Origin: Parcubacteria group bacterium Gr01-1014_3
GTDB taxonomy: Bacteria; Patescibacteriota; Minisyncoccia; UBA6257; WO2-44-18
Assembly: GCA_007376445.1 (NCBI GenBank)
Contig: VMGF01000001.1
Coordinates: 21,802 to 85,801 of the forward strand
Direction: 5' to 3'
DNA: 64,000 bases
In this document: piece after piece, positions 1,657 to 58,840 of the stretch
How positions within the stretch are numbered: position 1 is the stretch's first letter
Layout: the number at the start of each line of letters is the position of its first letter
The notes under the pieces: model-generated
What the model was told of the DNA's origin: nothing
The model's input: the letters and a program-made list of their open reading frames with translations, nothing else
Database searches by the model: none
Translations under genes and position numbers: made by a program

Positions 1657-2766
1657 CTATAACGTCCCTACCAGCGACAAGATCTGCTTCTTAAAATTAA
1701 CCTTGGAGAACTTCTTAGCCGCCATACTCACCGACTTCCGGTTAAATCGCATCTGCTCAAAACGCTGAACCGCCTCCATTAAACCCTCGGGGGTCTGCAC
1801 ATTGAATAAAGCTCCAGTTTTACCGTCTTGGACAATCTCAAGCGCCCCGCCCGCCGCGTAAGCGATCACCGGCGCTCCACAAGCCTGCGCCTCGGCCGCC
1901 ACCAGGCCAAAGTCCTCAACCTGAGGGAATATCAATGCTTTCGCGCCGCCATAAAGCTGGCGAAGTTCATCGTCGGTCTTAGAGGCCGGGATCAGTTCGA
2001 TATTTGAGGATTTTAAATTTTCAATTTTAAGTTTTAAATTTTCAGATTCCGGCCCGCTCCCCACGATCTTCAACGGAAAGCCTAATTTCGCGAACGCATC
2101 CACCACCAAATCAAAACGCTTGTAGTGAAGCAAGCGGCCTATAGCCAAATAGTAAGTATTATCTTTGTCGTAGCTTTTTGGGACATAATAAAACCGCTCA
2201 CTATCCACCGGCGGATAAACTACCTCCGAATCGCGGCCGTAATAATCTTTGACCTTACCGGCAATAAAGCTGGAATTAGATATTAAAATATTCGGCTTCT
2301 GTCCGGCCTCAAAATCCCAATTTTTTAGATAGTTTATAACTGGTTTTAGAAATGGCTTCCAAAATTGTAAATTGATAATTGAAAATTGAAAATTTAAATA
2401 GTCCGTCTCCCAGGCATAGCGGAGCGGTGTGTGTATATAAGAAATGTGCTTTGTTTTCGCGCCATGCTTTATCCCCTTCGCGTATCCGGCGGTATCCGAG
2501 ATGACGAGATCATACTCATCGCCCAGATCCAGCATCCCCGCCGCGATGGGCATCAGCGGAATGAACCAGCGGTGATTATCGCGGGCGAATTGGAAGTCTA
2601 AAACGCTGGTTTTTTTCACCCGATCGGTGAATTTACCGAAAGTTTTGGCCGGGTCGTGTAATAATGTATAGACAGGAGCCTCCGGGAACATCTCCATCAG
2701 CGTTTCCAGTACCCGTTCGGCGCCACCGTATTGATTTAAGTAATCGTGAACAAGAGCGATGCGCAT
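1657..2766 (-). CDS. glycosyltransferase family 1 (GT4-like)
   Basis: MRIALVHDYLNQYGGAERVLE N-terminus and C-terminal EDFGLVAAEAQACGAPVIAY motif of GT-B retaining GTs. Confidence 0.8.
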   Translation of the reverse strand: MRIALVHDYLNQYGGAERVLETLMEMFPEAPVYTLLHDPAKTFGKFTDRVKKTSVLDFQFARDNHRWFIPLMPIAAGMLDLGDEYDLVISDTAGYAKGIKHGAKTKHISYIHTPLRYAWETDYLNFQFSIINLQFWKPFLKPVINYLKNWDFEAGQKPNILISNSSFIAGKVKDYYGRDSEVVYPPVDSERFYYVPKSYDKDNTYYLAIGRLLHYKRFDLVVDAFAKLGFPLKIVGSGPESENLKLKIENLKSSNIELIPASKTDDELRQLYGGAKALIFPQVEDFGLVAAEAQACGAPVIAYAAGGALEIVQDGKTGALFNVQTPEGLMEAVQRFEQMRFNRKSVSMAAKKFSKVNFKKQILSLVGTL

Positions 2767-11946: not shown

Positions 11947-11993
11947 AGGGTTTTCTCTTTTATAACTTCCGATTTTGAATGTTGGTTTTATTA

Positions 11994-12036
11994 TTCGCAA
12001 TATTAAATCTCTGATTTGTATATTCGCGATTACTCC
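11994..12036 (-). promoter_or_regulatory. conserved 43-nt upstream motif, copy B (before hpf)
   Basis: TTCGCAATATTAAatctctgATTTGTATATTCGCGATTACTCC. Confidence 0.6.
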
Positions 12037-13007
12037 ACATATATCACTTCCTCCTCTAACTTTATGCCGTATTTCTTATCCACGCCAGACTTCACCAGTT
12101 TAATTAACTGCTTCACATCCTCCGCTTTGGCGCCGAGCGCGTTGACGATAAAGTTTGGATGCTTTGGCGAAATCATCGCGCCGCCGAAGCTGACTCCTTT
12201 CAATCCAGCCTGCGAAATAAGGTACGCCGTCGGCACGACCGGGAATGGGTCTTTTTTGATAACTTCCTTGAACTCTGAGTGGAGTTTTTTCGGGACCAGT
12301 CGCAAATCCACATTCTTAAAAATACTGCCGATATTCGGATACTCCAGCGGCTGGCGCGCTTTCCGGTAGGCGATCTTTTCCTCGATCGCCGCGCGGATGG
12401 CTTTCTTGTCGCCTTTTTTCATTTTGAAAACTGCTTCGATAATAATCTCCTTTGGCCCTAAGCCGACTTGCCCTGAGCTTGCCGAAGGGTCGTCGATCTT
12501 GAAAATGCTATTTCGATAACCAAATTTACATTCTGCATTATTGCGCTTCACTATCTTCGGGATCTTGGCAGAAATATCTAGGCTGACAACTTCATTTATA
12601 TTGTCTTTCGTTTCACCACCAAAAGCTCCGGCGTTACCGCGGATTGCGCCACCAACCGTCCCAGGCAGACCGCCAGCCCATTCGAATCCTGAAAGTGATT
12701 TAGTAATTGAGTAATTGAGTAATTCAGAAATCTGCACACCGGCTCCAACCCGGATCAGATTACCTTCCGCTTTTAATAAACCGATCTCCGGCTTTAAAAC
12801 CAGCCCGCCAAAACCCGCGTCGCTGATCAGAAGGTTGGTACCGCCGCCCAGCGTGAAGATCGGGAGTTTTTCCGCGCGCGCTTTTTCCACGGCGCAAACT
12901 ATGTCCTCAACAGTTTTCGCGGCAAAAAAATAGCGGGCAGCGCCGCCAATTTTGTAGTTGCTGTATTTGGCTAATTCGATTTTATTCTCAAACATGCATT
13001 TATTCAT
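12030..13007 (-). CDS. murB: UDP-N-acetylenolpyruvoylglucosamine reductase
   Basis: FAD-binding N-terminus KIGGAARYF...LGGGTNLL, C-terminal MurB domain; contains in-frame GC 20-mer encoding PSASSGQ. Confidence 0.85.
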   Translation of the reverse strand: MNKCMFENKIELAKYSNYKIGGAARYFFAAKTVEDIVCAVEKARAEKLPIFTLGGGTNLLISDAGFGGLVLKPEIGLLKAEGNLIRVGAGVQISELLNYSITKSLSGFEWAGGLPGTVGGAIRGNAGAFGGETKDNINEVVSLDISAKIPKIVKRNNAECKFGYRNSIFKIDDPSASSGQVGLGPKEIIIEAVFKMKKGDKKAIRAAIEEKIAYRKARQPLEYPNIGSIFKNVDLRLVPKKLHSEFKEVIKKDPFPVVPTAYLISQAGLKGVSFGGAMISPKHPNFIVNALGAKAEDVKQLIKLVKSGVDKKYGIKLEEEVIYVE

Positions 13008-13552: not shown

Positions 13553-13563
13553 ATTCCGCCGAT

Positions 13564-13592
13564 AGATTAGCAATTTAGGATGGATTTGTCAA
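13564..13592 (-). promoter_or_regulatory. promoter TTGACA-N17-TAATCT (minus strand)
   Basis: rc: TTGACAaatccatcctaaattgcTAATCT; identical copy at 14003-14031. Confidence 0.6.
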
Positions 13593-13593
13593 A

Positions 13594-13620
13594 TAAAAAA
13601 ACCGCTATCCAGTAGCGGCT
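13594..13620 (-). terminator. rho-independent terminator
   Basis: rc aagccgctactggatagcgg + ttttttt. Confidence 0.6.
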
Positions 13621-13976: not shown

Positions 13977-14002
13977 CCAGCCTCCTTCAAAGTACCGCCG
14001 AT

Positions 14003-14031
14003 AGATTAGCAATTTAGGATGGATTTGTCAA
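14003..14031 (-). promoter_or_regulatory. promoter TTGACA-N17-TAATCT (minus strand), exact duplicate
   Basis: 46-nt identity with 13553-13600. Confidence 0.6.
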
Positions 14032-14032
14032 A

Positions 14033-14057
14033 TAAAAAACCGCCGTTATAACGGCGG
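14033..14057 (-). terminator. rho-independent terminator
   Basis: rc ccgccgttataacggcgg + tttttt. Confidence 0.6.
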
Positions 14058-17408: not shown

Positions 17409-17795
17409 TTATAAAGTTAACTCGTCGAGCAACTTATCAATTTCAGCGCCAATGGCTTCATCGGACTCGAGATAATACTTAACTTCGCCAAGCTGGATCT
17501 GAAAATCCAGATTGCTAGCTTCACTGCGAAGTTTGGCTTCGTTGATCAAAGAAACCGCGCCAGGCGAAACTTTCTGAAGATTCAGATAAGAGAAGCCGCC
17601 GATAACCACGAAAAGCAAAAGGCTGGCCAGAGATAAGGCCATGCTCAACTTCAGACTGTCCAAAACTCCCCGGACTAGACCTGGAAACTGCTTCTGCGGA
17701 GCGGAGATGATTAAATTCTTGGAACGTTCAAGAAAGCCTTTTTCCGGCTGTAGAATCTTCAGTGATTTTAAAAGTTGTAAGATCTTTTCCTCCAT
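17409..17795 (-). CDS. putative anti-sigma factor (single TM)
   Basis: position immediately downstream of ECF sigma gene, central TM helix; inference from context only. Confidence 0.4.
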   Translation of the reverse strand: MEEKILQLLKSLKILQPEKGFLERSKNLIISAPQKQFPGLVRGVLDSLKLSMALSLASLLLFVVIGGFSYLNLQKVSPGAVSLINEAKLRSEASNLDFQIQLGEVKYYLESDEAIGAEIDKLLDELTL

Positions 17796-17804
17796 TTAAT
17801 TTAA

Positions 17805-17847
17805 TTCGCAATATTAATTCTTTTATTTGTACATTCGCGATTACTCC
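17805..17847 (-). promoter_or_regulatory. conserved 43-nt upstream motif, copy C (between ECF sigma and anti-sigma-like gene)
   Basis: TTCGCAATATTAATtcTTTTATTTGTAcATTCGCGATTACTCC; 9 nt from ATG 17795. Confidence 0.6.
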
Positions 17848-18401
17848 GATTCACCATCGGCGGACCGATCTCCCAGTTGTTCCCTGAGAGCATTGAGAGC
17901 GCGGTGCTGGATGAGCCTTACTGCCCCCTCACTTTTACCCAGCGTCGCGGCAATATCGCGATGCGGCAGGTCTTCGATGAATTTCATTATCAAAACGTCT
18001 TGCTGTTCAGGACCCAAGTTCCGCATAGCCTTCTGGATGACTTCCAGACTCAAGATTTTCTCCAGATTGTTTTCCGTCATGTCCACCAGCTTGACCGCGC
18101 TTTCATCCAACTCATCAACGTTGGCATGAAACTTTTTAGTCCGGTAGTGGTCAATGACCTTGTTTCGGGCGATCTGGTAAAGCCAGCTCGAGAATGGAAA
18201 GCCTTGCGACTTATATCCCCGAAGGTTCTGCCAGGCGCTTAAAAACACATCGTGGGTCAAATCTTCGGCCTCATACCGATTAGTGACCTTGAGAAGGATG
18301 AAGCGATAAATTTGAGGCGTGTAGTGGTCGTAAATTTGGCCAAAACACTCCTTTTCGCCCTTCTTAGCCCTATTAATTAATTTATCCTCACCTTCTAGCA
18401 T
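17841..18401 (-). CDS. RNA polymerase ECF-type sigma-70 family factor
   Basis: region 2 (FGQIYDHYTPQIYRFILLKV...DLTHDVFLSAWQNL) and region 4 HTH (DIAATLGKSEGAVRLIQHRALNALR). Confidence 0.85.
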   Translation of the reverse strand: MLEGEDKLINRAKKGEKECFGQIYDHYTPQIYRFILLKVTNRYEAEDLTHDVFLSAWQNLRGYKSQGFPFSSWLYQIARNKVIDHYRTKKFHANVDELDESAVKLVDMTENNLEKILSLEVIQKAMRNLGPEQQDVLIMKFIEDLPHRDIAATLGKSEGAVRLIQHRALNALREQLGDRSADGESE

Positions 18402-20158: not shown

Positions 20159-20500
20159 TTGAATGCTGTCTATATCGCGCTTGAAGCCTTGCGTTTCTCC
20201 AAGAAGGCTGGACATGGTGTCTGCCCGCGCCGGGTCGAGGAGCTCCGGATCGAAATCGAGAACGGAGCCGAAATCCATCCGATCCGGGTGAACGCTCTCG
20301 GCGACGGCACCTACACGATCAAGGACGGTCGCCATCGCGTGAAGGCGCACATCCTCGCCGGTTTCTCGGAGATTCTGGCAGTCATCGAGAATACAGCTAG
20401 CCGAATTAAACGTTTACTAAGAAAGGTTTTTGGTTTCCTCAGCCGCTCGAAAGAGCGGTTTTTTATTGTCGCTACTATCACATGTGATAGTACTATCTAG
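20159..20500 (+). CDS. ParB/sulfiredoxin-like nuclease-domain small protein (TTG start)
   Basis: IKDGRHRVKAHILAG matches ParB N-terminal DGxHR signature; GGAGG SD 6 nt before TTG; 3' end overlaps hairpin terminator and palindrome cluster. Confidence 0.5.
   Translation: MNAVYIALEALRFSKKAGHGVCPRRVEELRIEIENGAEIHPIRVNALGDGTYTIKDGRHRVKAHILAGFSEILAVIENTASRIKRLLRKVFGFLSRSKERFFIVATITCDSTI
20441..20466 (+). terminator. rho-independent terminator at 3' end of ParB-like gene
   Basis: ccgctcgaaagagcgg + ttttttatt. Confidence 0.55.
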
Positions 20501-20532
20501 CTGGATAGTACCGCTTTCCTATTGGAAAGCGG
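20475..20532. promoter_or_regulatory. palindromic operator cluster P1
   Basis: CTATCACATGTGATAG, CTATCTAGCTGGATAG, CCGCTTTCCTATTGGAAAGCGG. Confidence 0.5.
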
Positions 20533-23688: not shown

Positions 23689-23958
23689 CCCGTTAGAAGC
23701 AGGTCGTCGAAGACGACCGCGGATTTGCCGTCCGACAACGGTTCAGTAAAAGCTTTAATTTATTGTTTAAGCTGTGTGTCATAGATTAGTTGCTTCTAAC
23801 GGGATCTATGTTTTTATCATAGCACTTTATGGACTTTAGAGACTTTAAGGACTTTCGGCTTATAAAGTTATCCACATAAGCCAAAATAGGCCAGAATTTC
23901 AATGGTATAATTAAAAACATAGTGAAAGGTCGGCTTTAAACATAAACAAACAATACTT

Positions 23959-27653: not shown

Positions 27654-28103
27654 CTACTTCATCAATTCTTTTACGACCTCACCGATTATCGCGCCGTCCG
27701 CTTTTCCTTTCAGCTCTTTCATCACTTCACGCATAACCAAACCAAAATCCTTCCCCGCGTTTTTCGCGATCAGGTCTTTTACAATCGGAACAATTTCTTC
27801 TTTGCCCATCTGCTTCGGTAAATATTTTTGCAAGACTTCCAACTCGGCTTTTTCTTTCGCCGCCAGATCCGCCCGGCCACCGGCTTCAAAACTCAGAGCA
27901 GATTCCTTGCGCTTTTTTGCCTCGCTCATCAGAACTTCGGTAACAACTTCATCGGTCATCGTAAAATCAGGCTTCTTAGCCTTGAGATCGATTTCTTTAT
28001 TCCTTAAAGCAGAAATAATCATCCGGATAACGCCAAGAACATCCGCGTTACCGGCTTTCATCGCGGCTTTCATATCTTCCATCAACTGATCTTTTAGTGC
28101 CAT
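27654..28103 (-). CDS. GatB/YqeY domain protein
   Basis: MALKDQLMEDMKAAMKAGN...LQKYLP typical YqeY. Confidence 0.8.
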   Translation of the reverse strand: MALKDQLMEDMKAAMKAGNADVLGVIRMIISALRNKEIDLKAKKPDFTMTDEVVTEVLMSEAKKRKESALSFEAGGRADLAAKEKAELEVLQKYLPKQMGKEEIVPIVKDLIAKNAGKDFGLVMREVMKELKGKADGAIIGEVVKELMK

Positions 28104-28111
28104 GTAATTAG

Positions 28112-28190
28112 TTTATAAAGTTAAAAGTCGAAAGTCCATAAAGCGAGATGCCTTACGGACTTTATAGACTTTACGAACTTGCGACTTAGA
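28112..28190. repeat. AAAGTCCATAAAG repeat cluster (spacer yqeY / rpsU)
   Basis: aaagtcgaaagtccataaagcgagatgccttacggactttatagactttacgaacttgcgactt. Confidence 0.6.
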
Positions 28191-28401
28191 GTGTTCCCAT
28201 CTTTCGAGCTCGCTCGACTTCTTTCTTTTTAACTTCGCGATGGATCGCGGAAACACGCCGCTTGTTGCGGTTAATCGTTCTTCCGGAAAATCGGCGCTTT
28301 TTTGCTTCGCGCAAAACTCCGCTTTGCTGCATTTTCTTGGTAAAGCGGAACATCAAAGCTCCGATGGATTCGCCGTCTTTTTTGCGTACTTCAATAGACA
28401 T
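28186..28401 (-). CDS. rpsU: 30S ribosomal protein S21
   Basis: basic 71 aa protein, RKMQQSGVLREAKKRRF...KRR pattern. Confidence 0.85.
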   Translation of the reverse strand: MSIEVRKKDGESIGALMFRFTKKMQQSGVLREAKKRRFSGRTINRNKRRVSAIHREVKKKEVERARKMGTL

Positions 28402-28464
28402 AGTGGTTATACTACATCAAAATGAATTCATTGGCAATAGCCGAACTCGGAATCCGAACACAAA

Positions 28465-28600
28465 TGTTAATTTCCAATTTTAAATTTTTAATTTTAAATT
28501 AAATCAAAATGAGAAAATGTTAAAAAATTTATTCATTAATTCATTCAATTAAAACTTAAAATTTATAATTTAAAATTATTCCATTTTAGCTTAGAATTTG
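28465..28600. repeat. AT-rich AATTTTAAATT repeat island (operon spacer rpsU / HIT)
   Basis: tandem degenerate units ttccaattttaaatttttaattttaaatt...; same family at 28931-29026, 30340-30456, 38170-38265, 50692-50806, 51670-51755, 37255-37300. Confidence 0.7.
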
Positions 28601-28605
28601 TGTAT

Positions 28606-28929
28606 TTAAGGTTGTGGCCAGCCACCCAAAAGATGCAGATGTAAGTGGTCGATTACCTGACCACCCTCCCGTCCTACATTAAAAACGAGCTTATAACCCT
28701 TTAAATCGAACTTTGCCGCCAGATCTTTCGCCGCGTAGATCAGACCGGCCAAGAGCTCCTTATGATTGCCCTCCAGGTGAGCGATAGATTGAATGTGCTC
28801 TTTTGGGATAACTAGATAATGAACCGGTGCGGATGGCCGGATGTCTTTAAAAGCCATTAAACTCTCGGTCTCCATTGCCAGTTCAGCGGGAATTTCTTTT
28901 TTCGCAATTTTACAGAAGACACAGTCCAT
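28606..28929 (-). CDS. HIT family (histidine triad) hydrolase
   Basis: GGQVIDHLHLHLLGG HIT motif. Confidence 0.85.
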   Translation of the reverse strand: MDCVFCKIAKKEIPAELAMETESLMAFKDIRPSAPVHYLVIPKEHIQSIAHLEGNHKELLAGLIYAAKDLAAKFDLKGYKLVFNVGREGGQVIDHLHLHLLGGWPQP

Positions 28930-28930
28930 G

Positions 28931-29026
28931 AAAATTTTAAATTTCCAATTTTAAATTTTAATTTAATTTTTTAATTTATGAATTTTATAATTCATTTAAA
29001 ATTAAAAATTTAGAATTTAAAATTAC
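28931..29026. repeat. AT-rich AATTTTAAATT repeat island (spacer HIT / hisS)
   Basis: aaattttaaatttccaattttaaattttaatttaatttttt... Confidence 0.7.
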
Positions 29027-30319
29027 TTAGTGCATCTTCCGTTTAATGGCCGCGACTATTTTCTTAAGTGGCACGGTCTCTTGGGCGCCAGTTTTCATAT
29101 CGCGAATAATGATGGACTGCTCAAACGCTTCTTTCTGACCAAAGATCAGCGAAAGCGGCGCCTCGAACTTATTGGCCGTGCGAAGTTGCGCGTTCAAAGA
29201 ATCCTTGCCGAGCTGTTCCATGACATCAATCCCCGCTTCCCTTAATTCTTCGATCAAAACTAAACTTCGTTTTTTAGCGGTGTCCCCGATGTGAATTAAA
29301 AAGATCTTCGGACGAACACGATTACCCAGCGAAATCTCTTTCGTCTTCATCACCTCGATAATCCGTTCAAGACCCATGGCCCCACCGACACCCGGCGACT
29401 GCCGTCCTCCCATTAACTCAATAAGATAGTCATAACGTCCGCCGGCGCCAAGCGCGAAATCAAATCCCTCGGCAAAGATCTCAAAAACCGTTTTGGTGTA
29501 ATAATCGAAGCCGCGCACCAGAAGTGGATTGAGCATATATGGTAATTTCAACTCTTCCAGATACTCCAAAACTTTCTTGAAGTGCTTACGGCAATCACTG
29601 CAAAGATTATCGATAGTCTGCGGCGCTTCTTTTTTCAGCTCAACACATCCCGAAACCTTGCAATCCAAAAGCCGCATCGGATTGGTGTGAATGCGCCGCT
29701 TGCAGTCACCGCACAAAGATTTTTCTTTATTCTTATAATATTCCAGTAAATTTTTCCGGTAGATCGGGCGGCATTTGTTGCAACCAATACTGTTGATCTG
29801 TAAATTGATATTCTTGATCTTTAAATCATCCAGCGTGCGGTAGCAGGCCAGCATAGTCTGTACATCATAGACCGGATCGTTGTCAGAGCTGATTATCTCA
29901 AAGCCCGCCTGGTGAAACTGCCTGGTACGCCCAGCTTGCGGTTGCTCGTAGCGGAACATCGGACCTTCATACCAAAGCTTTAGTGGCTGACCAAGATGGC
30001 TCAGACCATGCTCGATGTACGATCGGACTATAGAAGCTGTTCCTTCAGGGCGAAGCACTACTTCATCCCCGCCCTTGGTTTTGAATGAAAACATCTGCTT
30101 TTCTACCACATCGGAAGTATCGCCCAGCGGCCGTTTAAATAATTCCAATTTTTCCATAACCGGAGTTTCGATCTTTAAAAAATTATAAAAGCCGGCGATT
30201 TCTTTGACGGCTTTCCGGATTCGGTCCCACCATGGCTGATCAGCCGGCAAAATATCGTTCATCCCTTTCAGGCTGGAGACCGGCTGTCTCTTCACTTTTT
30301 TCTGATCCTTTTTGGACAT
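29027..30319 (-). CDS. hisS: histidyl-tRNA synthetase
   Basis: LKGMNDILP N-terminus, class II motifs, RPEGTASIVR, anticodon-binding C-term; insertion domain unusually Cys-rich (4 CxxC-like pairs). Confidence 0.85.
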   Translation of the reverse strand: MSKKDQKKVKRQPVSSLKGMNDILPADQPWWDRIRKAVKEIAGFYNFLKIETPVMEKLELFKRPLGDTSDVVEKQMFSFKTKGGDEVVLRPEGTASIVRSYIEHGLSHLGQPLKLWYEGPMFRYEQPQAGRTRQFHQAGFEIISSDNDPVYDVQTMLACYRTLDDLKIKNINLQINSIGCNKCRPIYRKNLLEYYKNKEKSLCGDCKRRIHTNPMRLLDCKVSGCVELKKEAPQTIDNLCSDCRKHFKKVLEYLEELKLPYMLNPLLVRGFDYYTKTVFEIFAEGFDFALGAGGRYDYLIELMGGRQSPGVGGAMGLERIIEVMKTKEISLGNRVRPKIFLIHIGDTAKKRSLVLIEELREAGIDVMEQLGKDSLNAQLRTANKFEAPLSLIFGQKEAFEQSIIIRDMKTGAQETVPLKKIVAAIKRKMH

Positions 30320-30339
30320 ACAACTTTACTATTCTGATA

Positions 30340-30456
30340 GATTAAGAATTTATAAGCAAGTTTTTTGGAATTTTAAATTATAAATTTTTAATTTTAAATG
30401 AATTTTAAATTTTGAAATTAGTAATTAATTTAAAATTTATAATTTAAACTTTAAAA
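30340..30456. repeat. AT-rich repeat island (spacer hisS / lepB)
   Basis: ggaattttaaattataaatttttaattttaaatgaattttaaattttgaaatt... Confidence 0.7.
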
Positions 30457-31011
30457 TTATTCAACGCCTGGTCGGGAAATAATGCCAAGCTCTTTAACCG
30501 GTAAGAGGCGGGCCCTGACAATACCAACGATATATCTCCTCTCCAGCGGTCCCCAACTTCTTGAATCCAGGCTGTTCAAACGATTATCCCCCATCACGAA
30601 ATACTGATCCGGCCCGAGCACCGCTTCCACGCCACCGGTCGTAAAAGTATTCTCCGGAAGATATTTTTCGTTGAGGAAAATCTCCACGCCTTTGTTGAAA
30701 ACTTTAACTTCATTTTTTCTGACGGTTACTTTATCTCCCGGAATGCCGATAATTCTTTTAATAAAAAAAGTTTTAGGATCTTTAGGATACCGGTGCACGA
30801 TCACGTCGCCGCGCTCCGGCTCACCGAATCGATAAGTCAGTTCATCTACTATTAAATAATTGCCGTCGTAAAAGTTCGGCTCCATACTGGCGCCGCTCAC
30901 TAAAAATGGCTGGGCGATGAACTGGCGAATCAAAAACACCACGGCCGCCGAAACGATGACCACCTCCAGCACTTCCCAGACAGAAGATAAGAATTTCTTG
31001 AAGCCAACCAT
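30457..31011 (-). CDS. lepB: signal peptidase I
   Basis: GASMEPNF (Ser box), RIIGIPGDKV, YFVMGDNRLNSLDSR boxes. Confidence 0.85.
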   Translation of the reverse strand: MVGFKKFLSSVWEVLEVVIVSAAVVFLIRQFIAQPFLVSGASMEPNFYDGNYLIVDELTYRFGEPERGDVIVHRYPKDPKTFFIKRIIGIPGDKVTVRKNEVKVFNKGVEIFLNEKYLPENTFTTGGVEAVLGPDQYFVMGDNRLNSLDSRSWGPLERRYIVGIVRARLLPVKELGIISRPGVE

Positions 31012-31390: not shown

Positions 31391-31891
31391 ATGAATTCTG
31401 ACATCAAATTAATCATTGGCCTCGGGAATCCTGGAAGGAAATATGAAAACACCTACCACAGCGTTGGTTTTCTTTTTGTTGACTACTTGAAAGAAAACCA
31501 ACAAATTTTCAATTTTAAATTTTCAATTTTAAAATCTACCGAGTATATGAATAAGTCCGGAAAATTCGTCGCCGAAGCAGTAAAAAAAGAAGGTATTGAA
31601 TCGGAGGAATTATTGGTCGCTCACGACGACAGCGACTTAGAACTTGGAACTTATAAACTTCAGATAGGGCGTGGCGCGGGCGGTCATCATGGAGTGGAAA
31701 GCATTCAGCAACACCTTAAGACCAACGAATTTTGGCGATTGCGTATCGGCATCCGACCCTCGCCCTCCGAAGCTTCAACGAAGGATGGGCGCCACCTAAA
31801 AGCCGGGGAATTTGTGCTGAAAAAAATCTCTCCCGTAAATAAAAAAATCCTCGAAAAAGTTTTCGAGAAAATTGCGGAAGAATTGAAATAA
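31391..31891 (+). CDS. pth: peptidyl-tRNA hydrolase
   Basis: IIGLGNPGRKYENTYHSVGF, HDDSDLELGTYKLQIGRGAGGHHGVESI; segment QQIFNFKFSIL is encoded by the AT-rich repeat. Confidence 0.85.
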   Translation: MNSDIKLIIGLGNPGRKYENTYHSVGFLFVDYLKENQQIFNFKFSILKSTEYMNKSGKFVAEAVKKEGIESEELLVAHDDSDLELGTYKLQIGRGAGGHHGVESIQQHLKTNEFWRLRIGIRPSPSEASTKDGRHLKAGEFVLKKISPVNKKILEKVFEKIAEELK

Positions 31892-33819: not shown

Positions 33820-33860
33820 TTCGCAATATTAATCTTTTATTTGTATATTAGCGATTACTT
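33820..33860 (-). promoter_or_regulatory. conserved 43-nt upstream motif, copy D (before pilM-like gene)
   Basis: TTCGCAATATTAATcTTTTATTTGTATATTaGCGATTACTt; 11 nt from ATG 33808. Confidence 0.55.
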
Positions 33861-34748: not shown

Positions 34749-35595
34749 AATATTTTCTCTAAAACTAGAGAATTGATGTTCCCACCGCACGGACGGTTTT
34801 CCCGTATACGGCGAGCTCAATGCATTTTTTGCTTTAGCTTATAAAGATCACGCAAACCGCTAGGAATAAGGTGTTCGCCTTTGCGGATCCTACGCATAAT
34901 CTCACAGAAAATTTGGAAATCGTACCTCTTTGAAGGAAATCGTAATCGATTTTCTTTGAAAAACGGTATAATTATTTCTGCCAAATCTGTTCTGTTAGCT
35001 ACTTCGAAACGATAGCAATGCTGATGATTTTCGCGATTGTCTTTTTGAAAGTAGACATTCCCGCATTTAAAGTATTCCTTTAAAGCATCCAGTATTACCT
35101 TATCCTTTTCGATAAGCTTTACGTAAAATCTAGGCTCTATCTTTACTCTTCTAGTTGTTCTGTTGATTTGATCAGGATTACGAACATAAGCAGTAAAACT
35201 GCCTTCGCCATCCACCAAACCAACGATGTAATCTTTAGTTAACATTGAGTGAGTGCCTTCATCCCGCTAATCGAGACTACTATGACTCAGCTGACTTCTG
35301 ACGCTGCGTCAGTTTTATGATACCTCGATATTGCTATCGAGAACAGCATCAGATCTCCACAGGTCACGTAAAATTCTCTTCTTAGCATCCTAGACAAGCC
35401 GTAGATAAAGTCTTCCCCGCCCTCACCACCCACTGGCAGGTCGACTGGCTTTGTTAATGTCTGGCTGTTATTTGCTTTCAGATCCTCCACCGAACACCTC
35501 GCGATGCTCGGCTATCTTTTAGCTACGTTCCGATGACGGACATCGGAAGAATGGATTTTAACCATTTAGAAAATTACGCTGCTGCGCGCTTTTAT
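34749..35595 (-). mobile_element. self-splicing-type intron (847 bp) in 16S rRNA near the helix-44 base (E. coli position about 1400), carrying a LAGLIDADG homing endonuclease ORF
   Basis: conserved CCTGTACTCAC | ... | CGCCCGTCA junction is split by non-rRNA sequence containing ORF 34817-35245. Confidence 0.7.
34817..35245 (-). CDS. LAGLIDADG homing endonuclease (intron-encoded)
   Basis: YIVGLVDGEGSF dodecapeptide motif, size 142 aa, located inside 16S intron. Confidence 0.8.
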   Translation of the reverse strand: MLTKDYIVGLVDGEGSFTAYVRNPDQINRTTRRVKIEPRFYVKLIEKDKVILDALKEYFKCGNVYFQKDNRENHQHCYRFEVANRTDLAEIIIPFFKENRLRFPSKRYDFQIFCEIMRRIRKGEHLIPSGLRDLYKLKQKMH

Positions 35596-35912
35596 TGTGA
35601 GTACAGGACTCGAGAACGTATTCACCGTGGTATAGCTGACCCACGATTACTAGCGATTCCAGCTTCATGAGGGCGAGTTGCAGCCCTCAATCTGAACTGA
35701 GGCCATTTTTGATGGGATTAGCTCCGCCTTGCGGCTTGGCAACCCTTTGTAATGGCCATTGTAGCACGAGTGTGGCCCAGGGCATCAGAGGGCCATGCGG
35801 ATTTGACGTCATCCCCGCCTTCCTCCGTGTTAAACACGGCAGTCTCCCGCGACATATAAAACGCAGGATAGGGGTTGCGCTCGTTAACCCACTTAAGGGA
35901 ACGCTTCAAAGT

Positions 35913-35944
<32 letters not shown>

Positions 35945-36067
35945 TCACGTCCTTGAGAGACGACGCACCTTTCGGCGCGTCTTCGTGACCATTTCAAGCC
36001 CTGGTAAGGTTCTTCGTTTATTGTCGAATTAAACCTCATGCTCCACCGCTTGTGCGAGTCCCCGTCT

Positions 36068-36099
<32 letters not shown>

Positions 36100-36609
36100 T
36101 CCCAGGCGGTCAACTTAACGCGTTAGCTACGCCACTCCGAGGGTCGATACTCGAAACAGCAAGTTGACATAGTTTAGGGCGTGGACTACAAGGGTATCTA
36201 ATCCTTTTTGCTCCCCACGCTTTCGTGCAATGAGAGTCAGGAGTGCTCCAGTTAAATGCCTTCGCCTTTGGTATTCCTCACAATATCAACGGATTTCACC
36301 CCTACACCGTGAGTTCTATTAACCTCTAGCACCCTCTAGTCAGGCCGTATCTTCTGCGAGCTTCCCGTTGAGCGGGAAGATTTTACAAAAGACGCACCCG
36401 ACCTCCTGCGCACGCTTTACGCCCAATAAATCCGGATAACGCTCGTGGCCTTCGTATTACCGCGGCTGCTGGCACGAAGTTTGCAGCCACTTATTCCATG
36501 GGTACAATCAATAACTTTTTCCCCATTAAAAGCAGTTTACGATCCGAAGACCTTCATCCTGCACGCGGCGTCGCTCGATCAGACTTTCGTCCATTGTCGA
36601 ATATTCTCG

Positions 36610-36652
<43 letters not shown>

Positions 36653-37419
36653 CGTTGGGGATCAGCCTCTCAGCCCCCCTACCGGTCATAGCCTTGGTGA
36701 GCCATTACCTCACCAACTAGCTGATCGGACCTAGGCCGCTCCCGAAGTGACTTGCGTCTTTCGTCTTTCGACAATATCGGACATTAGTCTATCTTTCGAT
36801 AGATTATTTCCGTCTTCGGGGTGCGTACCAAGGTGTTACTAACCCGTTCGCCACTATACTTTTATCTCTCTTGACTTGATATAATCTCATCTTAATTAAC
36901 AAAAGTACCGTTCGACTTGCATGCCTTATCCACGCCGCCAGCGTTCATCCTGGACCAGGATCAAATCCTCAAAAAAAATTACCGAACATTGAATTTATTT
37001 TAGTAAATTCACCATTCGCTAACTGTTGGGACAACTACAAAATTCTTGACTAAATTTTGACTCGATCTTGATTTTTAATTCTTGGTTGTGTATACAACAC
37101 ACTGCAATTTTCGAAGTTCAGTCGGCTGCGCTTTTTTAATAACGCATCCGGCCCGCTCTCCCTGAATCCCAGAGGGAACCGGCCGGATGAATTAAAACCT
37201 TTATTCACTTGTCGCCTATCTGTGAAAAGAAGTATATATGAAAGCGCTGTTTCGTGTCAACTGTCACAAAACAGCGAATTTTCAATTCTCAATTTTGCAA
37301 TTTTTGTCCCTTCGGGACATCTCCTGTAGGAAGACAATTAATTTACAATGAATTAATGTCCAAACAGTTTGATAATTTTATTTTAAGCATTGAATGAAAA
37401 TTGGTATTTGGAAATTGAA

Positions 37420-37458
37420 AAATTAAGCCCCGCTTTGCCTTAAGGCAAAGCGGGGCTG
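37420..37458 (-). terminator. terminator after lipoprotein gene
   Basis: agccccgctttgccttaaggcaaagcggggct, T-rich tract on minus strand. Confidence 0.65.
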
Positions 37459-38086: not shown

Positions 38087-38169
38087 ACGTTTCTCCTATT
38101 ATTTCGTGACAGGAACAGTCAAAGAACTTGACTTACATACTACTCTATTTCAAAGTATTTGTCAAATGG

Positions 38170-38265
38170 GAAATTTTAAGTTTTAAATTATAAATTTTAA
38201 TTTAATTATTTAATTTCAAAATTTAAAATTAATTTATAATTAAAAATTTAGAATTTAAAATTATC
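38170..38265. repeat. AT-rich repeat island (upstream of lipoprotein gene / rpmE)
   Basis: gaaattttaagttttaaattataaattttaatttaatt... Confidence 0.65.
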
Positions 38266-38429
38266 AAATACCTCTTGCTTTTTCGTAATTTCTCGTATAT
38301 AATGTGTATTAAGTTTATGAAGCAAGACATTCACCTCCCGATTTCTTAATTCTTAAAATTAAGAAATCGAGGATCCTCGATTTTGTAGACAAATCAAAGA
38401 TTTGTACAAAATCGGGACAAAATACCTTT

Positions 38430-40233: not shown

Positions 40234-40290
40234 ATTCTTTCCTCCATTCAACGAACCGCCTACAAAGTAACAGTTTCAACACAAAATCAC

Positions 40291-40362
40291 AAGTACTATC
40301 ACGCGTGATAGTGCCCACCGCTTTCCCCATAGGAAAGTACTTTCCTATGGGGAAAGCGGTGG
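40291..40362. promoter_or_regulatory. palindromic operator cluster P2
   Basis: CTATCACGCGTGATAG plus 45-nt palindrome CACCGCTTTCCCCATAGGAAAGTACTTTCCTATGGGGAAAGCGGTG. Confidence 0.5.
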
Positions 40363-40655: not shown

Positions 40656-40708
40656 CTGAAATCCTTTCAAGGTACGACCACACTCTACAATAAAAAGGCT
40701 TATTTCGC

Positions 40709-40789
40709 AAGTACTATCACGCGTGATAGTACTATCCCATGTGATAGTGGCGAATATTCCATTATCCAGCCATGGCTGGATAATGGAAT
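40709..40789. promoter_or_regulatory. palindromic operator cluster P3
   Basis: CTATCACGCGTGATAG, CTATCCCATGTGATAG, TTCCATTATCCAGCCATGGCTGGATAATGGAA. Confidence 0.5.
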
Positions 40790-41648: not shown

Positions 41649-41755
41649 GCAACTGCTTTCCTATAGGAAAGCAGTTGCTATCCAGCTGGATAGCACTATC
41701 GCGCGTGATAGCATCTTCGCTTTCCTGAGGGAAAGTACTTTCCCTCAGGAAAGCG
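41649..41755. promoter_or_regulatory. palindromic operator cluster P4
   Basis: GCAACTGCTTTCCTATAGGAAAGCAGTTGC, CTATCCAGCTGGATAG, CTATCGCGCGTGATAG, CGCTTTCCTGAGGGAAAGTACTTTCCCTCAGGAAAGCG. Confidence 0.5.
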
Positions 41756-42359: not shown

Positions 42360-42418
42360 TAGCTGAACTCCTTAAAGTGCTAGCCAGATAGTACAATAAA
42401 AGATTGTACTTGGCAAGC

Positions 42419-42588
42419 TTACCCACGCACTAATTTTGCTTATTCAATATTTAAATTTTCTATCTTTAAGTCTTATCTAAATCAAAACAGCGATACGCTA
42501 GGGATCACGGCTATTCGCCGCCCGCGTATCGCTGTTCATATATCTGCAAAATTAGTGCGGGGTTATCGTTTTGTTGCTAAAATTTCGG
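42419..42588. mobile_element. MITE-like 170-bp element with 17-bp terminal inverted repeats, copy 1
   Basis: TIR CCCACGCACTAATTTTGC ... GCAAAATTAGTGCGGGG; internal palindrome ACAGCGATACGC...GCGTATCGCTGT; about 90% identical to 52441-52611. Confidence 0.55.
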
Positions 42589-42754
42589 TCGAAACCAACT
42601 CCTTCGTCGGAACGTCTCGGAGGCGGTTTTGCTTGGTTCAAAAACCGCCGAGAGAGAAGAAAAGTTTGCCGCTGGAGCAAACTTATTCTGGTTCCGAAAA
42701 GGAGTTGGTTGAGGGTACCGAAATTTTAGACAAAACTGATAAAAAATGGCCCGC

Positions 42755-48407: not shown

Positions 48408-48444
48408 AGTCTAAAGTTGAAAGTCCTTAAAGTCCATAAAGTAA
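48408..48444. repeat. AAAGTCCATAAAG repeat cluster (spacer pfkB / hyp)
   Basis: tctaaagttgaaagtccttaaagtccataaagtaatt. Confidence 0.6.
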
Positions 48445-49656: not shown

Positions 49657-50688
49657 CTATTTTCTTTTCAATACTTTTTTCACCGCGCCAACGATATCTT
49701 TCACTCCCATTCCATACTTTTCAATAAGTTCCAGCGGAGCGCCGGATTCGCCAAAGACATTTTGAAGACCGATGAACTCCATCGGTACCGGACACTTTTT
49801 TGCTAAAAACTCCGCGACAGCTCCGCCAAGACCGCCAGAAACCTGATGCTCCTCCACCGTGACCACTGCTCCAGCTTTTTGCGCTACTTCCAAAATCGTG
49901 TGTTCATCGAGCGGTTTTACCGTGTGGCTATTTATCACCGTCACGTTTATTTTTTCTTTTTCCAGTTCTTTGGCGGCAAGCAGAGCGTTGTGAAGTAAAA
50001 GCCCGCAACCAATGATCACCACATCCGGCTTGCCAACTTGTCCTGAGCCCGCCTGCCCCGCCGTGGCGGTGGCCGAAGGATTCCACATTATCTCCGCTTT
50101 TCCAGGAGTAAACGGCGTGTCTTCCGTGGTCATCACCGGAGATTTCTCGCGCGCGAAACGGATATAAGTCGGGCCCCAGAGTTTGGCCGCGGCGATGGTG
50201 GCCTTTTTAGCTTCGATCGCGTCGCAGGGTACAAACACTTTCATATTCGCCAGCACGCGCATTGTGGCGATATCCTCTACTGCCTGATGCGTGGCCCCAT
50301 CTGGCCCCACCGAAATGCCGGCGTGATGCCCGGCGATCTTCACGTTGGAATCGTTGTAGGAAATCGTAGTTCGGATCTGCTCCCAGTTTCGGCCAGGAGA
50401 GAAGGCGGCGTAAGAAGAAATAAAAGGAATCTTTCCGGAAACTCCCAGTCCCGCCGCGATGGCCGCCATATTTTGCTCCGCCACGCCAAGCTCAAAAAAT
50501 CGTTCAGGATATTTTTTCGCGAAAGCTTCAGATCGGGTAGACTCGCTCAAATCCGCGCAAAGCACCACCACATTCGGGTCGGCCTCGCCGGCGATCAAAA
50601 GCCCATCGCCGTAACCATTACGAATAGGCTTTTGATCTACGTCCTTATCAAAAACTTTCGGATTTAGTTTTAGTTCTGGGTTTAACAT
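49657..50688 (-). CDS. tkt: transketolase, C-terminal (pyrimidine-binding) subunit
   Basis: FELGVAEQNM, GATHQAVEDIA; split-gene arrangement with N-terminal subunit upstream. Confidence 0.85.
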   Translation of the reverse strand: MLNPELKLNPKVFDKDVDQKPIRNGYGDGLLIAGEADPNVVVLCADLSESTRSEAFAKKYPERFFELGVAEQNMAAIAAGLGVSGKIPFISSYAAFSPGRNWEQIRTTISYNDSNVKIAGHHAGISVGPDGATHQAVEDIATMRVLANMKVFVPCDAIEAKKATIAAAKLWGPTYIRFAREKSPVMTTEDTPFTPGKAEIMWNPSATATAGQAGSGQVGKPDVVIIGCGLLLHNALLAAKELEKEKINVTVINSHTVKPLDEHTILEVAQKAGAVVTVEEHQVSGGLGGAVAEFLAKKCPVPMEFIGLQNVFGESGAPLELIEKYGMGVKDIVGAVKKVLKRK

Positions 50689-50691
50689 GGA

Positions 50692-50806
50692 ATAATTTTA
50701 AATTATAAATTTTAAGTTTTAATTGAATGAATCAATGAACAAATTTTTAAACATTTTATCATTTTGATTTAATTTAAAATTAAAAATTTAAAATTGAAAA
50801 TTAGCG
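50692..50806. repeat. AT-rich repeat island (spacer between split tkt genes)
   Basis: aataattttaaattataaattttaagttttaattgaatg...aaaattaaaaatttaaaattgaaaatt. Confidence 0.7.
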
Positions 50807-51682
50807 CTACTCGTGTTCTGATTTTATTTTCCCTTTTAGCGTCCTTAATTCTGCCAGCGCTTTATTGGCTTCTTCTTTATTCGGCGGTTTGCCGTGCCAG
50901 TTGTAATCATTTTCCATGAAGCTCACTCCCTTCCCCGGAATCGTGTGCGCGATGATCACAGTCGGTTTTTCATAAATCGCCTGCGCTTCAGTGATCGCGT
51001 CCACGAACTGCTCGATATTATGGCCATCAACTTCCAGCACGTGCCAGCCGAAAGATTCATATTTAGATCGGAATGGCTCAAGCGGCATGATATTTTCCGT
51101 AAAGCCATCGATCTGAATATTGTTACGATCCACCACCATCGTGAGATTGCTCAACCGATTTTTTCCGGCAAACATCGCCGCTTCCCAGGTGTTGCCGCAA
51201 TCATGCTCTCCGTCAGAAGTAAGCGCGTAAACCCGGTATTTCTTTTTATCCATTCGCGCCGCGAGCGCCATACCCACTGCTTGTGAAAGTCCGGAGCCAA
51301 GCGGGCCGGAAGTAGTTTCCATACCCGGAAGAGAAGTCCTATGCGGATGCCCCTGAAGCCGGGAATTTATTTTGCGGAGAGTTTTTAATTCGGAAATCGG
51401 AAAATATCCCGCGTGCGCCATGGTTACATACCGCACCGGGCAAATATGACCGTTGGAAAGAACTAGCCGATCTCGCTCCGGCCAATCCGGCCGTTTCGGA
51501 TCATGATTCAAAATATGAAAATAAAAAGCGGTGAAGATATCAGTCATGCCGAGCGGACCGGCTGAATGACCGGAACCGGCCTGAACCAGCGTCTCAATAA
51601 TATCCTCACGGATCTCAGTCGCCTTTTCCTCGAGGAATTTTAATTTTTTATCGTGCAGAGCGGGGAGCATTATAATTTTCAA
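50807..51682 (-). CDS. tkt: transketolase, N-terminal (TPP-binding) subunit
   Basis: GHSAGPLGMTDI, SDGEHDCGNTWEA TPP motifs. Confidence 0.85.
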   Translation of the reverse strand: MKIIMLPALHDKKLKFLEEKATEIREDIIETLVQAGSGHSAGPLGMTDIFTAFYFHILNHDPKRPDWPERDRLVLSNGHICPVRYVTMAHAGYFPISELKTLRKINSRLQGHPHRTSLPGMETTSGPLGSGLSQAVGMALAARMDKKKYRVYALTSDGEHDCGNTWEAAMFAGKNRLSNLTMVVDRNNIQIDGFTENIMPLEPFRSKYESFGWHVLEVDGHNIEQFVDAITEAQAIYEKPTVIIAHTIPGKGVSFMENDYNWHGKPPNKEEANKALAELRTLKGKIKSEHE

Positions 51683-51755
51683 TTTTTAAACTGTTTGTGA
51701 ATTGGGTCATTGTAAATTGATTGAAAATTGCAAAATTGTTAATTGGAAATTTATA
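51670..51755. repeat. AT-rich repeat island (spacer rpe / tktN)
   Basis: ttataattttcaatttttaaactg...gaaaattgcaaaattgttaattggaaatttataat. Confidence 0.6.
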
Positions 51756-52422
51756 ATCTGGAAAGTTCTTCAAACGCCGCTTTCGGGTCAGTGCTACTGA
51801 ATATGTAAGACGCCGAGATTAGTATGTCCGCCCCGGCTTCTCGAGCTAATTGGGCGGTTTCTTGGTTAATACCGCCATCTACTTCAATTATAGCATCCGG
51901 CGCGTTGACTCTAAGGAACTTAATCTTCCCCAGGATCTTTGGATCAAAGGACTGGCCAGCCCAGCCCGGCGGGACGGCCAATAATTGAAGGTATTTAAAG
52001 TCGTCTTTGTGAGCTAAAAGCCGCTCCACATCCGTACCCGGATTGATCGCAAGCATCGCTTCCACTCCATATTTTTTACATTTTTCCAGAAGATAGACAG
52101 AATCCGTCATCGCTTCCAGGTGAAAGATCACCCGCTGAATTTTTCCGGTCCTTAACCAGCTATCAATCACCGCTTCGGGACTGGAAACCATCAGGTGTAA
52201 TTCAACTTTGACCGATGACAAATGACCGATGACATTAACCAGCTCAGCAGGGCTTCCCCAAGTCGTGTTGGGTGAAAAAATCCCGTCTACTATATCCAAG
52301 TGCGCCCACCCATCCTTCGCCAAGGCTTCGGAGGGCAAGTTCGCAAATATATTTTGAACGATTTTAAACTGGCGAGCGGCCTCTTCCGCATTCTGAACAT
52401 TAATCGCGGGAATAACTTGCAT
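51751..52422 (-). CDS. rpe: ribulose-phosphate 3-epimerase
   Basis: HLDIVDGIF, VDGGIN TIM-barrel motifs. Confidence 0.9.
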   Translation of the reverse strand: MQVIPAINVQNAEEAARQFKIVQNIFANLPSEALAKDGWAHLDIVDGIFSPNTTWGSPAELVNVIGHLSSVKVELHLMVSSPEAVIDSWLRTGKIQRVIFHLEAMTDSVYLLEKCKKYGVEAMLAINPGTDVERLLAHKDDFKYLQLLAVPPGWAGQSFDPKILGKIKFLRVNAPDAIIEVDGGINQETAQLAREAGADILISASYIFSSTDPKAAFEELSRL

Positions 52423-52440
52423 GGCTTAAGTATAACAAAA

Positions 52441-52611
52441 TTACCCACGCACTAATTTTGCCTTTTCAATATTTAAATTTTTCTATCTTTAAGTCTTTTT
52501 TAAATTAAAACAGCGATACGCTGGGGATCACGGCTATTCGCCGCCCGCGTATCGCTATTTATATATCTGCAAAATTAGTGCGGGGTTATCGTTTTGTTCC
52601 TAAAATTTCGG
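52441..52611. mobile_element. MITE-like 170-bp element, copy 2 (upstream of rpe)
   Basis: same TIRs and internal palindrome as copy 1. Confidence 0.55.
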
Positions 52612-58357: not shown

Positions 58358-58840
58358 TTATTTATGTATTAATCTAAAAACGACAATACCAAAAGCCACG
58401 GCGACATTCAGCGATTCTTTTTTTCCATGCATCGGAATTTCCAAGATTTTATCGGCTTTTTTGAGAATTGCTGGCGATAAACCTCGCACCTCGTTGCCTA
58501 CGACGAGGGCAATTTTCAATTTTAAATTATCAATTTTCAATTTATGATACGGAATAGATTTTTTGGACTGTTCGATCGCGAAAATTTTATATCCCTCTTT
58601 TTTTAATCTATCAATCAGCCTTGAAGTTCCTTGCGCTGAGCGCGCCGAAGCGTCCCACGGCACGCTCTTTTCTCCGCCGAGCGCCACCTTGGTCAACTGC
58701 GGGCGCGGACGGCCAAAAATATCCACCGGCTCAGGCGTGATTCCGCCAAGATAGACTTTTTCTATCCCCGCGGCATCAGCCGTGCGGAAGATTGAGCCGA
58801 CATTATGCAGGCTGCGGATGTTATGAAGAATTGCGATCAT
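58358..58840 (-). CDS. SpoU/TrmH-family RNA 2'-O-methyltransferase
   Basis: LVVGNEVRGLS, NVAVAFGIVVFRL SPOUT motifs; start set at ATG 58840 (MIAILHNIRS) after upstream terminator; contains GC 20-mer variant and AT-rich repeat in frame. Confidence 0.75.
   Translation of the reverse strand: MIAILHNIRSLHNVGSIFRTADAAGIEKVYLGGITPEPVDIFGRPRPQLTKVALGGEKSVPWDASARSAQGTSRLIDRLKKEGYKIFAIEQSKKSIPYHKLKIDNLKLKIALVVGNEVRGLSPAILKKADKILEIPMHGKKESLNVAVAFGIVVFRLIHK

Follow-up and report, generated by a model that had tools for sequence, protein, structure and literature searches.

What are the AT-rich blocks that lie between consecutive genes of an operon in Parcubacteria group bacterium Gr01-1014_3? We analyzed a 64,000-nt stretch of this metagenome-assembled genome (MAG) from the candidate phyla radiation (CPR, or Patescibacteria), namely positions 21,802 to 85,801 of contig VMGF01000001.1, hereafter the window, by whose numbering all positions are given. 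A run of minus-strand genes within it encodes signal peptidase I (lepB), HisS, an HIT protein and ribosomal protein S21 (rpsU), all identified with Pfam, and the spacers between them (lepB/hisS 137 bp, hisS/HIT 97 bp and HIT/rpsU 204 bp) each hold an island of repeated sequence that is very rich in A+T. We found that these three islands and two others in the window belong to a dispersed palindromic repeat family with near-identical copies, and that they have been inserted at gene junctions that relatives keep tight. Based on comparison with other genomes, we believe that they are probably non-autonomous derivatives, lacking an open reading frame (ORF), of a widespread selfish cassette of the PF05635/TIGR02436 (S23p) family, by which we mean a gene for a ~120-aa four-helix-bundle protein bracketed by two inverted arrays of a 7-nt unit.

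Scanning the window, which has a GC content of 46.5%, in 40-nt windows with a GC content of at most 15% picked out five regions (28456-28601, 28923-29038, 30341-30469, 38156-38277 and 50679-50811). They contain five islands of 94-121 bp each with a GC content of 7-13%, while the remaining intergenic regions of the window have 22-54%. The islands that an earlier note on this DNA had reported from the letters alone are therefore real, as is its placement of the S21, HIT, HisS and signal peptidase I genes on one strand. None of the islands is assigned to a strand, and three of the five occupy consecutive spacers of one operon. Island A (28468..28588, 121 nt, long form) lies in the HIT/rpsU spacer and has heptamer arms at approximately 28468-28510 and 28546-28588. 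Island B (28932..29025, short form) nearly fills the hisS/HIT junction, lying 2 nt past the hisS stop codon and ~3 nt ahead of the HIT ATG. Island C (30364..30458, short form), in the lepB/hisS spacer, abuts the lepB stop codon and leaves a non-repeat leader of ~45 nt before the hisS ATG. The note's spacer lengths of 100-200 bp agree with what we measured, but its statement that the spacers consist almost entirely of repeat fails for A (121 of 204 bp) and C (95 of 137 bp).

The other two islands lie close to where the earlier note had put them (38170-38265 and 50692-50806). Island D (38169..38264, short form) is located between divergent genes and is flanked by a strong minus-strand promoter and by a plus-strand TTGCTT-17-TATAAT, the latter read by eye. 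Island E (50683..50803, long form) separates the halves of a split transketolase, which Pfam identified together with Rpe. One end of island E (...AAAATTATTCCATG, 50683-50692) overlaps the ATG of the downstream transketolase half, and its counterpart in copy A (28579-28588) reads ...CCATT, so a single base makes or breaks the ATG; element E may supply the start codon of this transketolase half. An assembly artefact was ruled out, as hisS and half of islands B and C recur without change in L002, an assembly made independently from short reads. That assembly ends inside both B and C, which is expected for a dispersed repeat, and other assemblies of the source organism are identical wherever they overlap.

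The internal structure of the islands differs from the degenerate tandem array of AATTTTAAATT units that had been proposed for them. Both a period scan and Tandem Repeats Finder (TRF) correct the unit to the heptamer AATTTTN: we observed 7 strict period-7 segments versus 0.03 in local-composition shuffles, other periods in the strict scan gave 0 or 1 segment except for 3 at period 14 (a multiple of 7), and TRF called period 7 in ~20 arrays. Ten of the 14 strict arrays in the 79 kb of the source genome that we read are intergenic. Each island is a single long imperfect palindrome instead of a simple tandem array, with a left arm of (AATTTTN)3-4, a centre of 20-45 nt between the arms, and a right arm that is the reverse complement of the left. 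A 25-nt end motif, AATTTTAAATTNTAAATTTTWANTT, points inward at both ends of every island and occurs 20 times with at most 2 mismatches versus 0 expected. The hairpins fold more stably than dinucleotide shuffles, with z-scores of -2.3 to -3.1 that are about equal on both strands; with A and E also inverted relative to each other, a strand-specific RNA structure is unsupported.

Islands A and E are 95% identical over 121 nt, the non-repetitive centre included, and they lie at unrelated loci in opposite orientation relative to the flanking same-strand genes. A full-length alignment could be made of seven elements, the five islands plus one each from two other CPR genomes (L005 and L070), and it has 42 invariant columns. 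A, E, L005 and L070 constitute the long form, and B, C and D the short form, which is without 19 central nt. The consensus stem has 22 pairs, nearly all of them invariant A-U. The islands matched no known RNA family in Rfam at the gathering score, nor at E <= 1 over 28100-30600, and no Csp gene was found near them within the 79 kb. A search of metagenomes with the A/E centre returned two matches only, both chance matches to a (GAAT)n run.

Two further sites that the earlier note had counted as similar islands, 51670-51755 and 37255-37425, are indeed heptamer-armed relatives, but the similarity is loose and their GC content is higher, at 24-30%. Site F (51672..51750, no strand), in the rpe/tktN spacer, is a degenerate relative whose units are AATTGNN and whose palindrome is weak. 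Site G (37275..37425, no strand), upstream of the 16S rRNA gene, has inverted AATTTTC and GAAAATT arrays around a centre of ~90 nt with 79% complementarity to site F. With their AATTGNN and AATTTTC arms, the two sites form a mutually related second subfamily.

The gene order lepB-hisS-HIT-rpsU-yqeY-ybeY-ftsA-ftsZ is kept in five relatives whose HisS proteins are 67-73% identical to that of the window, allowing the same junctions to be compared directly. The lepB/hisS, hisS/HIT and HIT/rpsU spacers measure 17, 0 and 28 bp in L003, 9, 1 and 26 bp in L004, 21, 114 and 17 bp in L005, 11, 96 and 142 bp in L006, and 2, 69 and 4 bp in L007. Because the orthologous junctions are mostly 0-28 bp long, the islands are insertions. 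The 114-bp hisS/HIT spacer of L005 is a long-form AATTTTN palindrome with a GC content of 12% in a 52% GC locus, and those of L006 and L007 are hairpins of other short units, so this junction holds some hairpin element in four of the six genomes. What relatives have in place of the islands is thus almost no spacer or a structured hairpin repeat, and not the long unstructured AT spacers that the earlier note had named as the outcome that would make its islands generic. We also noted a second family of intergenic hairpin repeats in the window, with AAGTC/GACTT-type units at a period of 7-9 (240-321, 23825-23863, 28119-28189 and 48408-48432). One of its copies fills the rpsU/yqeY spacer, giving hairpin repeats in four consecutive spacers of the operon.

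In other genomes, arms of this kind bracket a gene. When we scanned one genome per species with the end motif, at least 120 stretches matched, and clustering the ORFs of the 120 loci listed gave a single recurrent family, consisting of 8 genes of 116-124 aa in 7 loci. All 8 match PF05635, the "23S rRNA-intervening sequence protein" (E-values of 1e-14 to 7e-23), and TIGR02436, the "four helix bundle protein"; the family also matches PDB entries 2RLD and, weakly, 2GSC (Xanthomonas), both entries having five chains. Inspection showed inverted AATTTTN-type arrays on either side of all 8 genes. Since these loci had been chosen by the array, we drew samples by the protein alone, which yielded 14 genes from 2 viral and 12 plasmid loci, the latter from five phyla (Cyanobacteria, Bacteroidota, Bacillota, Spirochaetota and Chloroflexota). 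The best period was 7 in 13 of 14 upstream and 14 of 14 downstream flanks, and the flanks were inverted complements (at least 18 of 21 positions) in 11 of 14. Under a strict criterion, such flanks bracket 9 of the 14 protein-selected genes and 7 of the 8 four-helix-bundle genes in the motif-selected loci; for other genes the count is 6 of 714, even in array-enriched loci (p = 6e-14 against the protein-selected genes). The PF05635 gene family is generally flanked by inverted period-7 arrays. We found no general description of this association in the open-access literature, although an earlier description is possible.

The heptamers themselves vary. On the two viral contigs the flanks are (AATTCGT)4 with (ACGAATT)4 and (TAACCTA)9 with (TATAGGT)3, and the same heptamer is present on both sides in 11 of 24 cassettes. 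The arm unit tracks the relatedness of the proteins: AAATTTT-type units go with all CPR-type proteins (55-75% identical) and AATTCG[T/C] units with three cyanobacterial-type proteins (74-82% identical), and in one Moranbacteria locus two subfamily members separated by 700 nt differ, one having AATTTTN arms and the other G-rich arms. One protein was found on 23 contigs, but these were one locus in different samples throughout and so carry no information on cassette mobility. Many of the CPR four-helix-bundle genes are on contigs of 0.5-2 kb, consistent with flanking repeats breaking metagenome assemblies. The plasmid-borne genes are wedged into operons, between cas2 and cas1, hsdS and hsdR, a helicase and a methylase, or an RND adaptor and its permease, and none is in an rRNA gene. 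The family was flagged as CRISPR-linked in a large-scale survey (PMC10910872), and its presence inside cas2/cas1, hsdS/hsdR and helicase/methylase operons may explain this flag.

Several features point to a link between the islands of the window and such cassettes. The islands have the same kind of arms as cassettes that carry the gene in other CPR genomes, and locus L096 holds both cassettes and gene-less palindromes. In the cassette of L092, the sequence ...TCAATTTTAAATGAATCA runs directly into the ATG that starts the four-helix-bundle gene, and 21 nt of that cassette, TCAATTTTAAATGAATCAATG, recur unchanged in the gene-less island of L005. Islands A and E have GAAT[T/C]AATGAA at the same place, with GAATNAATG in common with the start-codon context of the cassette, and the centre of island A keeps the start-codon context GAATTAATG together with a remnant mini-ORF of 10 codons. 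Island A can be aligned over ~120 nt with six cassettes (82-89% identity) if long internal gaps are allowed across most of the ORF; the two alignments shown retain a short piece close to the 3' end of the ORF. There is no PF05635 gene between the arms of the islands, so we filed them as ORF-less derivatives and not as full members, and the source MAG is not among the best 120 homologs listed of the four-helix-bundle protein. An internal deletion that removed the ORF would have turned a cassette into the long-form islands, and a further deletion would have given the short form. As the sequence is of low complexity, this deletion step is something that we infer and do not demonstrate. A proliferating element was one of four options offered in the earlier note, and it is the best supported of them in this more specific form, given the 95% identical pair, the lack of islands in most relatives and the arms shared with a gene-carrying cassette.

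Some of our results count against derivation from a cassette. The alignment of island A with cassettes was made with cheap long gaps and its low complexity limits its weight, and when low-complexity arms share a unit, their similarity speaks only weakly for common descent. No PF05635 gene was found in the 79 kb of the source genome or in the loci of the five relatives. No transposase was called in the same ~79 kb and no rnc gene, for RNase III, was found there; to our knowledge, the four-helix-bundle protein is not a known recombinase. No target-site duplication could be demonstrated. Compensatory changes occur in only 3 of the 22 stem pairs, in a covariation test that is uninformative because the stem is nearly invariant A-U. 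Solo arrays that lie in frame inside genes are left unexplained by descent from cassettes. The direction could also be the reverse, with the gene having landed in pre-existing palindromes.

If the islands do descend from cassettes, their tolerance in operons could be accounted for as follows. On transcription of the operon, the two arms would pair into an A-U stem of 35-45 bp, which RNase III may cut by analogy with the intervening sequence of Coxiella. The element would then be cut out of the RNA, making an insertion between cistrons tolerable, with separation of the cistrons on the mRNA as a side effect. Such excision would explain how islands such as B and E can persist right between a stop codon and a start codon. 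The RNase III processing sites among the options of the earlier note gain indirect support in this way from the Coxiella element, which carries the same gene family. The number of units would drift by slippage, and copying at the DNA level may depend on four-helix-bundle protein supplied in trans.

One alternative is growth in place, in which slippage makes an array, template switching folds it into a palindrome, and recombination or gene conversion homogenizes the copies, the gene sharing such arrays by coincidence or through an insertion preference. Heptameric simple sequence repeats are over-represented in many bacteria and have been attributed to slippage as a hypothesis (PMC4692102), pure (AATTTTA)n arrays without a partner are common among the matches listed, and no mobilizing gene lies near the islands in the 79 kb. 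In the window, AATTTTN arrays lie in frame in a GT4 glycosyltransferase gene (2009..2044, minus strand, with a second, inverted array at 2361..2400, minus strand), in a variable loop of peptidyl-tRNA hydrolase (Pth; 31502..31538, plus strand) and in a SpoU methylase gene (58510..58543, minus strand), and these in-frame arrays carry C wherever A would give a TAA stop. Also in favour of growth in place, an array persists at the one Pth loop in three genomes with different heptamers (AATTTTN, AATTTAA and TAACGAC; in relatives, the arrays are at 9279-9306 of L003 and 9264-9302 of L005), while a fourth genome has a gap. Against growth in place, A and E have a 95% identical non-repetitive centre at unrelated loci, and the island centres have GAATNAATG in common with the start-codon context of the cassette. 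The association of gene and arrays is also very strong in the samples selected by protein, and the arm units follow the lineage of the gene. We regard growth in place as unlikely.

A regulatory role for the islands, either as intercistronic hairpins selected for mRNA stability or processing, or as promoter or UP-element modules that give downstream genes their own start, would be another explanation. They begin 0-20 nt past the upstream stop codon in all four co-directional cases, and the hisS/HIT junction holds a hairpin of some kind in most of the genomes compared. Promoter-like hexamer pairs are enriched inside the islands and face outward (15 versus 5.9 +/- 2.5). Promoter-like sites also follow islands A and D: TTGCCA-17-TAGTAT (28409..28437, minus strand) lies between island A and rpsU, outside the repeat, and TTGACA-17-TAGTAT (38137..38165, minus strand; 10 of 12 positions) abuts the left end of island D. 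A weak site adjoining island C was read by eye.

The distribution of the arrays across genomes argues otherwise. By name, ~38 of the 120 matches listed are CPR, ~40 are Bacteroidota or Ignavibacteria, and the remainder come from many phyla; many consist of nothing but (AATTTTA)n. Of the first 70 matches listed, 11 are in loci of at least 50% GC, where the chance expectation is 0.03 matches for the whole collection. A covariance model of the islands found full-length palindromes in Moranbacteria, Kuenenbacteria and other Patescibacteria, and likewise in Flavobacterium, Prevotellaceae, an Acidobacterium, an Alphaproteobacterium and Bdellovibrionales; some of these palindromes have arms built of other heptamers. 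Among the 120 loci listed, 64 sites are in co-directional, 14 in convergent and 13 in divergent spacers (70/15/14%), compared with 461, 100 and 92 background spacers (71/15/14%), and 11 of 124 sites are in coding sequence. The co-directional sites show no preferred orientation, with 35 on the plus and 29 on the minus strand; an excess of minus-strand flanking genes in the first 12 covariance-model matches is gone in this full sample. Neither spacer context nor orientation departs from background, which argues against the islands having a dedicated role as promoter, UP element or terminator, and the internal promoters or UP-element arrays proposed in the earlier note are not supported in that role. 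The near-identical copies A and E are found in both orientations relative to transcription, presence among relatives is sporadic, and the window already has canonical TTGACA/TATAAT promoters and ordinary terminators with a G+C-rich stem and T run elsewhere. Intrinsic terminators were rejected as a candidate, as the islands contain no terminator-like site and have no G+C-rich stem or T run, and the transcribed strand folds no better than the other. In our judgment, selected regulatory modules are a distinctly improbable explanation.

Still less probable, and by a good deal, is that the islands are classical MITEs (miniature inverted-repeat transposable elements), that is, deletion derivatives of an insertion sequence with a DDE transposase (such as IS630/mariner, with TA duplication) that are mobilized in trans. 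Terminal inverted repeats, a length of ~100-120 bp and several copies all fit, and TA dinucleotides bordering A and E are compatible with TA duplication, although in DNA that is ~90% A+T such borders are uninformative. The ~79 kb contain no called transposase of any family, and none recurs near the arrays in the 120 loci listed, where PF05635 is the sole recurrent gene. Finally, generic low-complexity AT intergenic DNA, which would account for the low GC content, and tandem interspaced guide RNA (TIGR) arrays, which occur in CPR genomes beside a Nop-domain Tas gene and have units of 36 nt with two variable spacers (PMC12045711), have next to no chance of being correct, the former given the near absence of spacer in relatives and the structured, repeated nature of the islands, and the latter ruled out by a period of 7, missing spacers and housekeeping neighbours.

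Among known systems, the closest in structure are the intervening sequences (IVSs) of 23S rRNA genes. The Coxiella burnetii IVS is a selfish element of 428 nt in the 23S rRNA gene, with an S23p ORF of the PF05635 family that appears to be decaying; GACAGAT heptamers stand in tandem in its 5' region, three or four of them according to strain, and RNase III cuts the heptamer-containing terminal stem at the first repeat (PMC4990558). As in the IVSs of Coxiella (and of Leptospira, as cited in PMC4990558), the terminal inverted repeats of our islands form a long stem; tandem heptamers are present in the Coxiella stem, and a gene of the same family is present in the full-length relatives of the islands. 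The islands differ in being located in mRNA operon spacers between protein-coding genes, and not in helix 25 or 45 of 23S rRNA, in having no ORF, and in having arms of pure A+T; cleavage by RNase III is known for the Coxiella IVS only.

Intergenic heptamer repeats have been described as the short tandemly repeated repetitive (STRR) sequences of Calothrix and Nostoc, GGGAATC of Xanthomonas, GGGGAYT of Nostoc, and TAACTGA of Beggiatoaceae, cyanobacteria and Bacteroidetes (PMC4692102, PMC4679880). They are strongly intergenic and often inside operons, with their function unexplained; inverted pairs of arrays number 70-75 per Xanthomonas genome, and the spacers of related species are shorter and free of the repeats. 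The four-helix-bundle gene is mentioned in neither paper, one of which reports no link to mobile elements. Our islands likewise have a 7-nt unit, are intergenic, inverted and in operons, and lie in spacers that are mostly shorter in relatives. In contrast, those papers treat arrays and not bounded palindromic elements, and what we describe comes from a CPR bacterium, has a unit of A+T only, and includes duplication of whole 121-nt elements. Heptamer arrays of TGACYGA in the window (8106-8148 and 52202-52233) resemble the TAACTGA repeats. The best-supported classification of the islands is as a variant of IVS-type elements and heptameric repeats, and we consider the cross-phylum association of gene and arrays to be the most interesting result of this study.

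Correia elements, MITEs of Neisseria, are ~100-150 bp long, intergenic and co-transcribed, with terminal inverted repeats, and their hairpins have been reported as RNase III substrates with promoter-like ends. The islands resemble them and other MITEs in their terminal inverted repeats, their size within the 50-500 bp range and their several copies; they differ in having no DDE transposase partner or demonstrated target-site duplication, in having arms of tandem heptamers, and in that the element with the same ends encodes a four-helix-bundle protein. Rickettsia palindromic elements can sit in frame inside protein-coding genes, whereas only solo arms, and no whole palindromes, do so here, and there is no sequence relationship. 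Repetitive extragenic palindromic (REP) sequences and the bacterial interspersed mosaic elements (BIMEs) are also intergenic palindromic repeats inside operons; however, REPs are 20-40 nt long, G+C-rich and linked to a Y1 (RAYT) transposase, as described in PMC3333891, while the islands are 94-121 nt long with 7-13% GC and no Y1 transposase gene was called in the 79 kb.

The window has other features that we noted in passing. A ~250-330-nt intergenic sequence is present in two copies (42414-42746 and 52436-52660) that are 91-94% identical with gaps; its nested fold is very stable, at ~-158 kcal/mol for the 388-nt spacer, it has no Rfam match, and it could be a structured RNA of a new kind or another repeat element. 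Beside the 16S rRNA gene are a LAGLIDADG endonuclease ORF and a weak match to group II intron domains D1-D4 (34817-35345 and 35550-36976), the latter scoring 37.9 bits against a gathering score of 35. Repeated palindromic sites, TACTATCACGCGTGATAGTA, with small helix-turn-helix genes nearby (20473-20511, 40287-40318, 40705-40753 and 41687-41712), look like operators of one repressor. A conserved motif of ~30-56 nt (ATTCGCAATATTAAT...TTTGTATATTCGCGAYTACTCC) beside several genes (759-814, 11982-12037, 17793-17848 and 33833-33859) may be a common promoter or leader element. An exact 45-nt direct repeat adjoins two adjacent small genes (13556-13600 and 13995-14039).

For annotation, the islands matter in that they break assemblies and create spurious promoter predictions, and the four-helix-bundle gene looks "associated" with CRISPR and restriction-modification operons into which it is merely inserted. 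Three things have so far been reported apart from one another and lack an explanation: the excess of heptamer repeats, the intervening sequences that break up 23S rRNA, and the very abundant "four helix bundle protein" family. Our results suggest that the three are parts of one element, and that the small AT palindromes in the operons of a reduced CPR genome are gene-less relics of it. More speculatively, and we hold this as a possibility that is open to considerable doubt, the heptamer arrays of many phyla (STRR, GGGAATC, TAACTGA and AATTTTN) may largely be ends or relics of one pan-bacterial class of selfish cassette, whose pentameric S23p protein, a relative of Avd, the accessory protein of diversity-generating retroelements (DGRs), would recognize its own 7-nt repeat and promote copying of the element, with a stem cleavable by RNase III making it harmless in rRNA and in operons. 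If true, this would explain the excess of 7-nt repeats, give an abundant protein family a role, and constitute a new kind of mobile element without a known recombinase.

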